A stretch of DNA of 64,000 nt from Planctomycetota bacterium (lineage in GTDB: Bacteria > Planctomycetota > UBA1135 > GCA-002748355), in NCBI GenBank assembly GCA_026984035.1, contig JALSSW010000051.1:2707-66706 (forward strand). Reading direction: 5' to 3'. The stretch's first letter is position 1. Each line of letters opens with the position of its first letter. The notes beneath the pieces were generated by a model, which saw nothing but the letters and a program-made list of their open reading frames with translations, was not told where the DNA came from and did not search any database. Shown here piece by piece: positions 37,745-43,481 of this stretch. Made by a program: the position numbers and the translations under genes.

Positions 37745-39130
37745 ATGGAAACGATTATCGAGCCATTTCGGATTCGGACTGTCGAAGCTTTGCATATATC
37801 GACGGAAAAGGAAAGAAAAGAGGCCTTAGAACGCGCCCACTTCAATCTTTTCTCCCTGCATGCAAAAGAAGTTTTGATCGACCTTCTCACAGATTCGGGT
37901 ACAGGGGCCATGAGCACCAGACAATGGGCGGCTCTGATGATGGGAGATGAAAGCTATGCAGGGAGTGAATCGTTCTACGATTTAGAAAAAACCGTCCAAA
38001 AGCTTACTGGTTATAAGCATGTTATCCCGGTGCACCAAGGAAGAGCCGCTGAGCGTATCCTGTTTCAAACTCTTTGCGCTGAAGGAAAAAAAATACCCAA
38101 CAACACCCACTTTGACACAACGCGTGCGAACATTGAGTTTACTGGGGCCGAAGCGATCGACCTCCCTGTCGAGGGAGCACTGGATCCGGGAAAGGAAGAG
38201 CCCTTTAAAGGAAACATGGATCTTGAAAAGTTGGACGGTTTCTTAGAAGAAACCCCTGCCGCAGACATCCCCTTGGGCCTTCTCACAATCACCAACAATA
38301 CAACCGGGGGCCAACCTGTTTCGATGGAAAACATCAGGGAAGTTGCAAAAAGGTACAAGGCGAAAGGGATTCCCTTTTTTCTCGATGCAGCTCGTTTCGC
38401 CGAAAACGCCTTTTTTATTAAAAAGCGGGAACCTGGCTACAAAGAGATCCCTCTCGATGAGATAGCCCATGAAATGTTCAGTTATGCGGACGGATGTCTC
38501 ATTTCTGCGAAAAAAGATGGACTCGTCAACATCGGAGGTCTCCTTGTCCTCAACAACGACGATCTTGCGTCCAGAGCAAAAAACCTCCTGATCCTCACCG
38601 AAGGTTTCCCCACTTATGGGGGTCTCGCTGGAAGAGATATGGCAGCACTTGCCCAAGGCCTTCGTGAAGTCCTTGATGAAGACTACCTCGAATACCGCCT
38701 CGCGAGCGCACAATATCTGGGACGCGCCTTAACCTTTCTCGGCATCCCCATTGTGAAACCCTGCGGAATCCATGCAATCTATGTGGATGCTCGAGCCTGG
38801 CTCCCCCAAATCCCCCCCGAAGAACTCCCCGGGCAAGCTCTCTGCTGCGAGCTTTACCTAAGGGGAGGGATCCGGGCAGTCGAAATCGGAACTCTCATGT
38901 TTGGAGGGACCGACCAAAAAACCGGAAAACCCACTCCCGCAGCCCTTGACCTGGTCCGCCTTACTCTTCCCCGCCGTGTGTACACCCAAAGCCATTTTGA
39001 CTGGGTGATTGAGGTCTTTTCCGGAATCGCCCGAACTCGGAAAGAGCTGAAGGGATACAAGATTCTCGAAGAAGCCCCCTTCCTCCGAGCCTTTACTGCC
39101 AAACTGGCTCCCCTCCAATCTTCTGATTGA
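37745..39130 (+). CDS. tnaA: Tryptophanase (beta-eliminating lyase family)
   Basis: DLLTDSGT, GDESY, HQGR, HFDTT, SAKKD (PLP Lys), TYGG, IRAVEIG, PRRVYT. Asp and Ile at these sites favour tryptophanase over tyrosine phenol-lyase. GGAGG RBS. Confidence 0.85.
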   Translation: METIIEPFRIRTVEALHISTEKERKEALERAHFNLFSLHAKEVLIDLLTDSGTGAMSTRQWAALMMGDESYAGSESFYDLEKTVQKLTGYKHVIPVHQGRAAERILFQTLCAEGKKIPNNTHFDTTRANIEFTGAEAIDLPVEGALDPGKEEPFKGNMDLEKLDGFLEETPAADIPLGLLTITNNTTGGQPVSMENIREVAKRYKAKGIPFFLDAARFAENAFFIKKREPGYKEIPLDEIAHEMFSYADGCLISAKKDGLVNIGGLLVLNNDDLASRAKNLLILTEGFPTYGGLAGRDMAALAQGLREVLDEDYLEYRLASAQYLGRALTFLGIPIVKPCGIHAIYVDARAWLPQIPPEELPGQALCCELYLRGGIRAVEIGTLMFGGTDQKTGKPTPAALDLVRLTLPRRVYTQSHFDWVIEVFSGIARTRKELKGYKILEEAPFLRAFTAKLAPLQSSD

Positions 39131-39360
39131 CCACCTTCCGGCGGACTCTGGATTTCGTATCTCCCCCTAGAGGGATGGATTCCCAAGATGGTGGTCAATA
39201 AATGCAAAGTCCTAAAAAAACTCTCCAGCAAGGCAAGAAGGGTGAGGTTTCGTTCCTCAAGGGCTTTTCCAAGATGCCATCAATACCCTGAGACCCTTGG
39301 AGCTTGGAAAAAAACGAAAGATGGCAGAACTTTTCCTTTATGATAAATCTTCTCAAAGGC

Positions 39361-39388
39361 TTGCAAACCAAGTTCTCAAAGGTAATTT
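39361..39388 (+). promoter_or_regulatory. Candidate sigma70-type promoter
   Basis: TTGCAA (39361-66), 16 nt spacer, TAATTT (39383-88); about 85 nt upstream of a strong terminator. Confidence 0.4.
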
Positions 39389-39394
39389 CTGTTC

Positions 39395-39526
39395 CAGTTT
39401 TGACGTGACTTGAGGGTCGTGATTGGGCATTCTTGGGATCTAAAGAACTACATTGAATGATGATATTCCCCTGATCCCGCCGGACACTCCCCCCATTCCC
39501 CCCCGTTCGGCGGGATCATTTTTTTT
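39395..39526 (+). ncRNA. Candidate small regulatory RNA with C-rich loop
   Basis: Promoter-like site, no meaningful ORF, ends in a 14-bp hairpin with a 19-nt C-rich loop and T8. The 5' end is approximate. Confidence 0.45.
39472..39526 (+). terminator. Rho-independent terminator
   Basis: TGATCCCGCCGGAC / GTTCGGCGGGATCA stem (one G-U pair) followed by TTTTTTTT. Confidence 0.85.
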
Positions 39527-39738
39527 CAGTATCGTTGGCTGCCTTCAATACATAGAGTCTTCAAGGCACGGGAATGCGGCAAAAGAGCCGCCAAAACTCC
39601 TCCTGGATTTCGACTGAGACACCCCGACCGATGTTGCGGATGTCTACCAAGAATGGAATCAAGGAGGTAGGTCAAGGTAGGCTGCAGGACCTTTAAGAAT
39701 TTCCTTTATCCAATTTCTTTCATCAAACAGGAATGACA

Positions 39739-40242
39739 ATGATCCAAATCGGAGAAAAAGGCCCCACCTTCAAACTGGAGGACCACTTGGGCCGAACCGT
39801 TGACCTCCAGGACCTCCTGGGCAAGGGAAACGTCATGCTTCTTTTCTATCCACTCGACTTCACCCCTACCTGAAGCAAAGAAATCCCCGGAGCAGAGGCG
39901 ATCAAAGATCGTTTTGCTGCGGCTCACACCTACGTGCTAGGTGTGTCTGTGGATTCCAAGTTTTGCCACAAGGCCTGGGCTGATAGCTTGGGTGGAATTA
40001 GCTATCCGCTTCTCGCGGACTTCAACCCCAAGGGAGCAGTAGGTAAAGCCTACGGACTCTACCTTGAGGATGCTGGCATAGACGATCGGGCTACCGTCAT
40101 CCTCGATAAAGATGGAATCGTCCGGTATGCCGTCTCCGTCACCCCCTCGGGCGAGCGGGATATTCCCGGCCTTGCCGCTGAGTGTGAAAAAATCGACAAG
40201 GAGTACAGCGCCGGGCTCGGCGATCTGCCTCCGATCGAATAA
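39739..40242 (+). CDS. Peroxiredoxin (AhpE/AhpC-TSA-like) with in-frame UGA at the peroxidatic position; probable selenoprotein
   Basis: MIQIGEKAPTFKLEDHLGRTVDLQDLLGKGNVMLLFYPLDFTPT-TGA(39871-73)-SKEIPG...VLGVSVDS...YPLLADF. One continuous frame; UGA sits at the C of PxxxTxxC. Alternative ATG at 39733. Confidence 0.88.
39883..39902 (+). promoter_or_regulatory. Candidate bacterial SECIS hairpin
   Basis: ATCCCC-GGAGCA-GAGGCGAT can form a short bulged stem with a G-initiated apical loop, starting 10 nt after the UGA. Confidence 0.45.
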
Positions 40243-40702
40243 GCCAAAGGGCTCCACTCGCTTCCTCTTTGGGAATTTGCGGGTGGAGCCGCCCCTTTCC
40301 CATGTTTCCCAAAATCATCCTTTCGAGACGTCTCTCCAGAACCCAGACTGGACGCGAGTCCTCTCCCAAGAGTTCGCTCCCTCCCCGAAGGACCCGAATC
40401 GCAAAATCTTTCCCACATTGATGAACGCATTCTTCTCGAAAGCGAAAAAGGGCAAGCGCAGCCAAGACTTTCCATCGCTCCCACCCACTTCCCCTAAAAA
40501 CACTGGGAACCCGCCCCTCCGCGACGTATTCCAATACCCCCAAGCCCCAAATACCCCCTTTCTTTTGGAACATTCCTCCTCCTTTTCCCACATGCATCAT
40601 CCCTTCGATTCATTCGGATAGCCTTTTTGCTCCGGGATCGAGTCAGCCCAAACCCGAGCCCCAAGGCTTCTGTGAATAAAGGAAGAGAGAAAAAGAATCC
40701 TT

Positions 40703-42604
40703 TCAAATTTCTTCCAGATACGTCTGCCCACGAAGAGATTCTTTGAACAAACGGAGAAAGGATTGGACTCCTCCTTTTTCGATGAGCCCTTCCTTTAAGG
40801 CCCTTTCCGCAGCACGCCGGACTCGAAGAACCAAGTCCTCCGGATCATATTGTACGTAGCTCAAAACCTCAGCGAGGGTATCCCCCTCCACAACCTTCCC
40901 CAAATCAACATCCCCTTCCTCATCCAGCTGCACATGAACAACATTGGTATCCCCAAAGAGGTTGTGCAAATCTCCCAACACTTCCTGATATGCGCCCACA
41001 AGAAAAGCAGCGAGGAAATAGGGTTGTCCCTCTTCCAGTGGATGAATAGGAAGGCTATTCGCTACACCATGTGTTTCAATGAAACGATCGATTTTTCCAT
41101 CCGAATCACAGGTCAAGTCAGCCACAGTAACCCGTTGGCTTGGCTCCTCCCCCAACCTTTGAATGGGCATGATGGGAAAAAGTTGCTTGACTGCCCAATG
41201 ATCCGGTAAGGATTGGAACACTGAAAAGTTCCCAAAACAGGTGGCTCCCAGGCTTCTCCGCAAGGGTTCAAGCTCTTCGGCGAGGACCTCTTCTTCGCTT
41301 GCCCACTGAAACACCCGTCGACAAACAGCCCAAAAAAGGTTTTCGCAACGAGCCCGCCCCTTGAGGCCCAAAAACCCGAGATTAAACAGGCTGTTCGCCT
41401 CTCCTTTGAATTGAACGGCATCGTGATAAGTCTCGAGGTAATTCTTGGGACTCACCTCCAAAAGGAGTTCGTAAAACTTGTGGAGGATTTCAGGATCCCC
41501 TTCCTCTGGGCGTGGGCCGGCGTCCTCCCCCAGACCCTTCGACATCCCCACCACGTCAAAAACCAAGACAGCATGATGGGCAACAAGCGCCCTCCCTGAT
41601 TCACTCACAATATGGGGATGGGGAAGATCTTCCCTGTCACAAGCCTCCTCGATCGCAAAAACCACATCGTTTGCATATTCCTGAAGGCTGTAATTCATCG
41701 ATGAGTGGAAATTGCTTTGGGAACCGTCATAGTCCACCCCAAGCCCGCCTCCCACATCGAACCATCCCATGGGAGCTCCCAGTTTTTTTAACTCGACATA
41801 GATCCGACTCGCCTCCTTAAGGGCTGCTTTGATGGCCCGGATATCCGTAATCTGGGACCCCACATGGAAATGAAGAAGCTTAACCCCGTCCAGATAGCCT
41901 TCCCGCCGGCAGGTTTCCAAAACTTGAAGCAATTCCGAAGCCGCCAATCCGAACTTGGATTGATCTCCCGAAGATTCGTTCCACTTACCCGCTCCCTTTG
42001 AATTGAGTTTGGCCCGAACTCCCAAATAGGGCATCACTCCAAGGCGTTTTGCGATATCCAGGCAGGGCCGAAGCTCAGCAAGGCGATCAAGGACGAGAAT
42101 GATTTTTTTTCCAAGTTGCCGACCACGGAGAGCCATCTCGATATAATCCGCATCCTTGAACCCATTACAGATAATCAGAGATTCTGGATCCCCATGCATC
42201 GCAAGGGCAATCAAAAGCTCGGGCTTGCTCCCCACCTCGAGGCCCAGACTCAAGGAACGGCCAAACTGAACCACCTCCTCCACAACATGCCTCTGTTGAT
42301 TGACTTTTATCGGAAAGACAGCCCGATACCCTCCCTGGAAGCCATACTCCGAGATGGCAACCTGAAAAGCCTTACTCACGCGAAGAATCCGATCCTCGAG
42401 GATGTCCCCAAAACGCAGTAAAAGAGGAGGGGTGAGCCCCCTCTCCACAAGATCCATGGTGAGTTCATAAAGGTCGATAGGCTGCGTGCCTCCCTTTCCG
42501 ACCCGCACCTCCAGGTTTCCTCGAGCTGAGATCCCGAAGTACCCTTTCCCCCAGTCGGAGACAAGGTAAAGTTTTTCGCTGTCCTGGATCGTCCAGGAGT
42601 TCAT
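40703..42604 (-). CDS. speA: Biosynthetic arginine decarboxylase
   Basis: WGKGYF, FPIKVNQ (PLP Lys), EVGSKPEL, HFHVGSQ, GGGLGVDY, SESGRA, DLTCDSDG, HNLFG. Start 42604 (or 42637); the track's N-terminal extension overlaps the divergent gene. Confidence 0.95.
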   Translation of the reverse strand: MNSWTIQDSEKLYLVSDWGKGYFGISARGNLEVRVGKGGTQPIDLYELTMDLVERGLTPPLLLRFGDILEDRILRVSKAFQVAISEYGFQGGYRAVFPIKVNQQRHVVEEVVQFGRSLSLGLEVGSKPELLIALAMHGDPESLIICNGFKDADYIEMALRGRQLGKKIILVLDRLAELRPCLDIAKRLGVMPYLGVRAKLNSKGAGKWNESSGDQSKFGLAASELLQVLETCRREGYLDGVKLLHFHVGSQITDIRAIKAALKEASRIYVELKKLGAPMGWFDVGGGLGVDYDGSQSNFHSSMNYSLQEYANDVVFAIEEACDREDLPHPHIVSESGRALVAHHAVLVFDVVGMSKGLGEDAGPRPEEGDPEILHKFYELLLEVSPKNYLETYHDAVQFKGEANSLFNLGFLGLKGRARCENLFWAVCRRVFQWASEEEVLAEELEPLRRSLGATCFGNFSVFQSLPDHWAVKQLFPIMPIQRLGEEPSQRVTVADLTCDSDGKIDRFIETHGVANSLPIHPLEEGQPYFLAAFLVGAYQEVLGDLHNLFGDTNVVHVQLDEEGDVDLGKVVEGDTLAEVLSYVQYDPEDLVLRVRRAAERALKEGLIEKGGVQSFLRLFKESLRGQTYLEEI

Positions 42605-42683
42605 GGAAAGAATCGGTTTGCGCACAGGTTTTCCCATCTCTTCTCCTCGTGCGATAATTTTGGAACGAAAACAGTAACAAGCA

Positions 42684-43481
42684 ATGATCGAAGATGCCAT
42701 GGGGGAAGCCTTGCTCGGCGTTTTAATGGAACCGGAGATTGATCGGAAACTCCGTCTCGCCGAAGAGGTATGCAAGGTCCGGAATTTCAAGGTTGTAGAT
42801 GGGGATTCCCCCTCCATTCCCCCAAAGCCCGGCCGCCCCAAATCCTGGAAGGTCCTTGCAACCGAAGAGATCGGAGAGCGCCCTAAACTCACCCAACTCG
42901 AAGGACGCCGAGCCCTTCTCCATTCCCTTGCGAATATCGAACTCTCCGCGATCGAACTGCCGATCCTCGCCATCCTCGAATTCCCGGGGAAGGATGCGTC
43001 CTACTATCGGGACATGCTTTTTATCGCCGAAGAAGAGGTCCGCCATGCGCGAAGCCTCATCCATAGGCTTGAAAAACTTGGGGAGGAATTTGGCACTCGC
43101 TCCGTTCACCTTGGACTCTGGCATACCGCTCGTGCCTACCCAGATCTCTGTGATCGCCTCGCCGTTGTTCCCCGGATCCTCGAAGCTAAAGGGCTCGACG
43201 TCAGTCATAAGATCCGCAGACAGCTCATCGGTGCCGGAGATCAAGAATCTGCAAGGATCCTTGAAGGCATCTATTATGACGAAATCAAACATGTCGCCCT
43301 TGGGACCAAATGGTTTCGGCGGGTCTGTCGGGAACGGGATCTCTCCCCCGCCTCCCATTTCCTTTCCATCTCCCGTAAGTTTCAACCGAGTCGTCCCGTC
43401 GCAATCGACCGAGAGGGGAGGCGCCGTGCCGGTTTTACGGAAACAGAACTCCAGTTTGTTAAAGGGAAACACCAGAAATGA
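42684..43481 (+). CDS. Ferritin-like DUF455-family protein
   Basis: PGRP, LHSLANIELSAI, EEVRH, LEAKGLD, DEIKHV, R..AGF diiron ExxH motifs. Confidence 0.88.
   Translation: MIEDAMGEALLGVLMEPEIDRKLRLAEEVCKVRNFKVVDGDSPSIPPKPGRPKSWKVLATEEIGERPKLTQLEGRRALLHSLANIELSAIELPILAILEFPGKDASYYRDMLFIAEEEVRHARSLIHRLEKLGEEFGTRSVHLGLWHTARAYPDLCDRLAVVPRILEAKGLDVSHKIRRQLIGAGDQESARILEGIYYDEIKHVALGTKWFRRVCRERDLSPASHFLSISRKFQPSRPVAIDREGRRRAGFTETELQFVKGKHQK

Follow-up and report, generated by a model that had tools for sequence, protein, structure and literature searches.

An in-frame UGA at the peroxidatic position of a very probable selenocysteine-containing AhpE-type peroxiredoxin gene in a Planctomycetota genome

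The 64,000-nucleotide stretch of Planctomycetota DNA analysed here (the window) carries a locus at 39739..40242 on the forward strand that is very probably one gene for a selenocysteine (Sec)-containing AhpE-type peroxiredoxin (Prx), with the UGA at 39871 read as Sec. The sequence-only reading of this DNA had proposed such a gene, and its description of a 44-codon peroxiredoxin N-terminus, a TGA at the Cys of FYPLDFTPT-C, an intact in-frame remainder and a downstream hairpin was exact, coordinates included. From the ATG at 39739, 44 sense codons ending in ...LLFYPLDFTPT lead up to TGA at 39871-39873; behind this codon the frame continues for another 122 in-frame codons and is closed by TAA at 40240-40242. 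Read through, the coding sequence (39739..40242, stop codon included, + strand) would give a protein of 167 residues ending in the linker-like tail GLGDLPPIE, in which codon 45 (39871..39873, + strand) would encode Sec as the peroxidatic residue of a PxxxTxxU motif. The assignment as an AhpE-like peroxiredoxin draws on the read-through translation, the Pfam and PDB matches and a structure model.

An earlier in-frame ATG is present at 39733 and would extend the product to 169 residues. A possible Shine-Dalgarno box, AGGA at 39729..39732 (+ strand), lies 6 nt upstream of ATG 39739, a spacing that suits this start and not ATG 39733, and the orthologues start with a Met that matches ATG 39739 (MI..). 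We number residues from ATG 39739; Sec45, Cys76, Arg117 and Cys149 correspond to U47, C78, R119 and C151 when numbered from ATG 39733. Under translation table 11, the locus is divided into an ORF of 46 aa (39733-39873) and one of 102 aa starting at GTG 39934.

The read-through product matches the Pfam AhpC-TSA domain (PF00578) over residues 6-132 with an E-value of 5.8e-32, and this domain spans the UGA. Its best PDB relative by sequence is AhpE of Mycobacterium tuberculosis (E 9.6e-26), whose peroxidatic Cys aligns with the TGA, in agreement with the earlier proposal that the UGA occupies the peroxidatic position; the AhpE type is preferred over the Prx1 type by a modest margin (93.8 versus 77.1 bits). 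Modelled with an 87-row alignment, the product forms a single compact domain (pLDDT 96.6, pTM 0.92) with residue 47, as numbered from ATG 39733, placed where helix 45-56 begins, as is usual for a peroxidatic residue. All of the ten best Foldseek matches were AhpE structures (TM 0.91-0.95, rmsd 1.2-1.6 Å, 34-36% identity), which bears out the label 'AhpE-like' given from the sequence, and the window protein is closest to AhpE in both sequence and fold. It resembles AhpE (Rv2238c, a 1-Cys peroxiredoxin) in size, in the PxxxTxxC/U motif, in the conserved Arg and in fold; it differs by the limited identity of 34-36%, by the Sec in place of Cys, by its Cys149, which lies outside the stretch aligned with the AhpE sequence, and by having relatives most of which are fused to a glutaredoxin (Grx).

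Related loci were collected by a scan of one genome per species with a search pattern that excluded the Cys/Sec column; 599 stretches matched, 584 of these encode relatives, and the best 80 were kept. The peroxidatic column holds TGA in 79 of the best 80 loci and GGA in the remaining one, and because the codon is kept in 79 of 80, its presence in this column is not a matter of chance. As labelled, the best 80 loci belong to Planctomycetota, Acidobacteriota, Myxococcota/'Deltaproteobacteria', Binatia, SAR324, Verrucomicrobiota, Bdellovibrionota and other groups, and among them is one from Enhygromyxa salina DSM 15201, a cultured organism; the nearest locus is labelled Planctomycetota and shares 95% identity with the window protein. 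Within the window's own order, 9 of 41 genomes have an orthologue (55-95% identity), each with one TGA. Cys homologues of the kind anticipated by the sequence-only reading exist as well: AhpE, five full-length relatives (56-63% identity) and eight paralogues in the order have a Cys at the UGA column.

We also compared the gene with the copy in another genome of the same genus. Synonymous differences outnumber nonsynonymous ones by 9:1 over the 44 codons that precede the TGA and by 46:6 after it, the latter comprising 5:0 in the 20 codons from the TGA to GTG 39934 and 41:6 in the rest; purifying selection is thus seen on both sides of the TGA. These ratios bear on the possibility that the TGA is a true stop, the locus being a pseudogene formed by a nonsense mutation or a pair of small ORFs (44 and 102 residues). 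Table 11 does read the locus in this way and the 102-aa fragment stands in public databases as a called protein, yet synonymous changes dominate upstream, downstream and in the 20 codons that neither table 11 ORF includes; the TGA recurs in the same column of 79 of the best 80 loci from many phyla; and neither fragment alone would make up a peroxiredoxin fold, whereas the read-through product is modelled as one domain. The single locus in which the codon was lost to GGA shows that the site can mutate, and the complete Sec machinery of the genome, described below, speaks for decoding. Taken with these observations, a true stop is extremely unlikely.

The GGA (Gly) codon, the sole non-TGA of the 80, is at L111:3136-3138 in a Planctomycetota metagenome-assembled genome, where the called protein (P0006) is annotated as a full-length redoxin. 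The hairpin of this gene at +12 is still its strongest, with -22.7 kcal/mol, and the GGA reflects either an error in base calling or an inactivation of recent date. Another orthologue, L029 (G002:C8:48443-48883) in a 70% complete genome, keeps the TGA and has two stretches of its translation out of register, which suggests frameshifts or assembly errors.

The division of the gene under table 11 is mirrored in the databases, as had been expected from its sequence. Among the 120 nearest database proteins, 114 span just 57-70% of the query's length and go by the name 'hypothetical protein' or 'glutaredoxin', and the product of the same-genus copy is stored as a 102-aa fragment. Only six of the 120 span the full length, with Cys at the position in question in five of them and Gly in the sixth; since the partial entries make up 114 of 120 and the few complete ones have Cys or Gly, Sec is the rule in this clade. 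Relatives with a fused Grx domain are likewise found mostly as N-truncated 'glutaredoxin' or 'hypothetical' entries of about 200 aa. The window gene and more than 100 database relatives are thus stored as N-terminally truncated fragments. At its cut-off, no NCBIfam model covers the window protein or any of three long-form relatives tested, and the active-site half of these proteins is therefore systematically missed.

The source assembly is a metagenome-assembled genome in 210 contigs, 90% complete, and a fragmented assembly of this kind could in principle carry a TGA in error for TGC or TGT. We searched Logan contigs of sequencing runs for the region 39689-40246. Contigs of run X1, perhaps the source sample itself, and of run X2, from an independent study, showed no difference over this interval (word depth 16.1 and 14.4, respectively); run X3 did not extend to the TGA, and no RNA run was listed among the holders of this DNA. 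The TGA is not an assembly error, given that the X2 contig is letter-identical across 39689-40246 and the X1 contig likewise; TGA is likewise read in the genome of the same genus and at 78 further loci. An error for TGC or TGT, the outcome that the sequence-only reading had named as fatal to its proposal, is therefore vanishingly improbable and, to the extent that contigs are informative, has been refuted.

The inference that the organism decodes Sec was borne out by its genome, in which selA, selB, selC and selD all score over curated cut-offs. The tRNA-Sec gene scored 74.6 bits, was called by ARAGORN as tRNA-SeC(tca) and is 99 nt long with an encoded CCA end. SelB was found with 305.9 bits and SelA with 297.9 bits, the latter in two pieces at contig ends. 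SelD (340.4 bits) has its own in-frame TGA within AGCAGUAAK and is itself a selenoprotein. The selA and selD genes are located at G000:C100:12-1607 and G000:C141:7-822 (L009, L010, L019), with selD directly 3' of a selA piece. Of the 41 genomes of the order, 40 have SelB above the cut-off, among them every one of the nine with a TGA orthologue of the window gene; the one genome without SelB at cut-off is 66% complete. A general reassignment of TGA was considered and ruled out, because TGA serves as an ordinary stop in the window, closing 23 of its 43 long open frames.

These data describe a Planctomycetota lineage that decodes Sec and would spend that capacity on peroxide defence. In genomes G001-G040 of the order, many further matches with a peroxiredoxin or thioredoxin fold bear the mark '1 TGA', and selenoproteins with a thioredoxin fold look abundant across the order. 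With the peroxiredoxin query, a single match was obtained in the window's own genome.

Directly downstream of the UGA, and inside the coding region, the mRNA can form a SECIS-like hairpin (39887..39922, + strand), identified by folding, by synonymous-codon shuffles and by a family-wide peak of stability. It begins 16 nt past the U of UGA. Its stem runs in three blocks of 3, 7 and 5 bp, the first two separated by one unpaired G and the last two by a bulged G, and is capped by the apical loop AAA (39904-39906), 30 nt past the UGA. A 75-nt stretch folds with -29.4 kcal/mol (z -4.26), and none of 200 shuffles was equally stable. The most stable 42-nt window of the gene is the one at +12, with -19.5 kcal/mol, and the same position stands out in the 79 Sec orthologues, where the mean minimum free energy (MFE) over 42 nt is -19.8 kcal/mol at +12 and about -5 to -16 kcal/mol elsewhere. 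A weaker dip in the family profile is seen at about +42, and in the window a second small hairpin (39925-39945) directly 3' of the SECIS-like one spans GTG 39934, the start used by gene callers for the 102-aa product. At the matching place, the eight Cys paralogues have -7.4 to -13.4 kcal/mol, being distant proteins (33-43% identity) and not Cys forms of the same clade.

To separate RNA structure from coding constraint, codons were shuffled synonymously within each gene, leaving the protein and the codon usage unchanged. Only 9 of 1000 such shuffles were as stable as the window hairpin. Across the 79 orthologues, the mean z was -1.95 and 50 of the 79 had at most 5 equally stable shuffles in 100, versus a z of -0.1 to -0.3 and 6-9 of 79 genes at three control offsets treated with the same shuffles. 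The hairpin is thus kept in position, and its stability exceeds what the encoded protein would demand. The same-genus copy differs from it at five nucleotides in this stretch: two of these form a single compensatory change of an A-U pair to G-C, another turns G.U into A-U, and the remaining two fall in the loop and in the spacer. When the window structure was imposed on nine close relatives, 76.3% of the cells were paired, against 28.9-51.9% in slid controls.

Over the wide family, the same imposed structure gave 60.2% paired cells against 37.1-50.2% in slid controls, with a covariation score of 0.128 that was not above the 0.144 of a +1 slide. RNAalifold found no consensus pairs (0) among 83 in-register sequences and a weak consensus of 8 pairs (-1.18 kcal/mol) among the nine close ones. 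One column-fixed structure is accordingly not conserved family-wide, and clear covariation in fixed columns is confined to the close relatives. The register of the hairpin varies among sub-lineages, and for this reason positional MFE and synonymous shuffles were used in place of RNAalifold. A search of Rfam over 39000-40800 gave no match at E <= 1.

Bacterial SECIS (bSECIS) elements are described in PMC13188914, after the bSECISearch model, by a distance from UGA to loop of 16-37 nt, a loop of 3-9 nt, an upper stem of 4-16 bp and an MFE of -7.5 kcal/mol or lower. The window hairpin falls within these ranges, with a spacing of 30 nt, a loop of 3 nt, an upper stem of 5 bp (15 bp in total) and -19.5 kcal/mol over 42 nt. 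The consensus drawn in the Fig. 2 legend of the same paper also has a G among the opening two nucleotides of the apical loop, and here the window hairpin, with its AAA loop, departs from it. The SECIS element sought after the sequence-only reading is therefore present in one respect, as a hairpin at the right distance that is kept in position, and off in another, the missing apical-loop G. A strict scan with four constraints found no passing hairpin in the window and passed 21 of 79 orthologues compared with 49 of 632 control anchors. According to PMC13188914, a subset of predicted bacterial SECIS elements fails the consensus model.

The departure from the loop rule leaves some room for read-through of the UGA by means other than Sec, either by near-cognate Trp or Cys or by Cys carried on tRNA-Sec when selenium is scarce, and enzyme forms with Cys exist and are presumably active. 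This explanation does not account for a hairpin under RNA-level selection at the distance of a SECIS element, nor for the complete selA, selB, selC and selD set that the genome keeps along with a SelD that is itself a selenoprotein; moreover, a single change from TGA to TGC or TGT would give Cys, yet 79 of 80 loci keep TGA. We consider it very unlikely, if somewhat less so than a true stop. Under decoding as Sec, we infer that the hairpin 16-52 nt past UGA 39871 most likely recruits SelB-GTP-Sec-tRNA(Sec) during translation, by binding of SelB to 39887-39922; the UGA would then be decoded as Sec and not as a stop, yielding a single-domain enzyme of 167 residues.

In the proposed mechanism, Sec45 would sit at the first turn of helix alpha2, within the PxxxTxxU motif and together with the conserved Arg117, and would attack peroxides to form a selenenic acid. 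For the catalytic motif, Pro, Thr, Sec and Arg were each scored in 80 of 80 alignment rows, Cys149 in the C-terminal helix in 72 of 80 and Cys76 in 50 of 80. The enzyme might be recycled through Cys149 by way of a selenenylsulfide, or directly by an external thiol reductase; we give the route through Cys149 a chance somewhat short of even.

A likely difference between the window protein and its relatives is the source of the reductant. The 80 rows comprise 62 long forms (246-258 aa), 17 short forms (156-169 aa) and one gene cut by a contig end, and the window gene is a short form that lacks a C-terminal glutaredoxin domain. The 62 long forms have such a domain, and each of three tested gave a C-terminal PF00462 match (22.9-29.4 bits with a cut-off of 22.9). 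In long forms such as L065:3001-3744, L042:3001-3753 and L097:3001-3753, which join a Sec-peroxiredoxin to a C-terminal glutaredoxin, a C-[GM]-x-S motif with a single Cys marks the Grx part, and a conserved APCL comes further on. In most relatives, the reductant may thus be supplied in cis by the fused Grx domain, which the window copy does without. With one query, no stand-alone Grx domain of the fused type was detected at E <= 1 in the window's own genome, which is 90% complete.

In a FastTree phylogeny of the Prx domain, the window gene groups with the same-genus copy and one Planctomycetota short form (support 89), and this group adjoins the long forms; apart from it stands another clade of short forms, with 14 rows (support 99). 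Natural pairs of Sec and Cys enzymes, and of forms with and without a fused Grx, offer a testbed for what Sec buys a peroxiredoxin.

Prx-Grx hybrid enzymes are known as Prx5-type fusions in Haemophilus, Neisseria and Vibrio. The long-form relatives of the window gene share with them the domain order, Prx and then Grx (PF00578 + PF00462), and this order suggests recycling of a glutathione type. They differ from these hybrids in that the Prx part is AhpE-like with Sec and the Grx part has the single-Cys C-[GM]-x-S motif, and the window gene differs further in having no Grx part.

The first Sec-containing peroxiredoxin is said to be PrxU of Eubacterium acidaminophilum, described by Sohling et al. 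in 2001. Sec peroxiredoxins with a TxxU motif are by now established; a 2026 review (PMC13188914) lists the family and gives Sohling 2001 as its founding reference. Counts reported for Sec peroxiredoxins are 12 in genomes (PMC1794560), 253 Sec forms versus 7,348 Cys homologues in GOS (PMC2398784) and 91 proteins in 78 organisms (PMC5029168). A Prx-PP2C fusion is reported in section 9 of PMC2398784. The window protein resembles this known family in its AhpC/TSA domain, in the Sec at the peroxidatic position of TxxU and in the single Sec per protein. Because TxxU Sec-peroxiredoxins are long known and have been catalogued in the hundreds, the window gene adds to a known family, and the finding of a Sec-peroxiredoxin overturns no current knowledge.

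The window protein and its clade differ from the members described so far in several respects. At 167 aa, compared with the 233 positions of the PrxU model, and with its AhpE structural type, the protein is not an equivalog of PrxU: it scored 90.5 bits with the PrxU equivalog model NF040737, under the cut-off of 270, as did three long-form relatives (76.6-88 bits). Unlike in the known family, Sec is the rule in this clade and not the exception. In the literature searched, we came across neither a Sec-AhpE nor a Prx-Grx fusion with Sec; supplementary tables may list such forms. It is conceivable, although we think it rather unlikely, that the window gene is the short form of an uncatalogued clade of AhpE-type peroxiredoxins that have Sec by default, are usually fused to a monothiol Grx, occur in at least eight phyla as labelled, and use hairpins mostly lacking the loop G that form a distinct SECIS class. 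Such a class would, if real, imply a different rule of SelB-RNA recognition, and the hairpins of the clade with their off-consensus loops can be used to test the specificity of SelB.

The genes on either side of the locus are unrelated to it: the upstream one encodes a beta-eliminating lyase, and the downstream one, which is convergent, an arginine decarboxylase. A strong hairpin at 40250..40290 (+ strand), 8 nt 3' of the stop codon, folds with -29.2 kcal/mol (z -2.9) and is possibly a transcription terminator lacking a clean U-run; it was not called in a consensus terminator scan of 39100-40750. In the consensus promoter and terminator scan of this region, counts were not above those of shuffles and a promoter-like site for the Prx gene was not found. 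Upstream of the gene, a 600-nt gap (39131-39738) free of long ORFs contains a terminator-like hairpin and T-run at 39502-39524. The arginine decarboxylase frame (40703-42973, - strand) has 756 codons with Pfam matches that begin at residue 211, and translation probably starts at a site far downstream from the first ATG.
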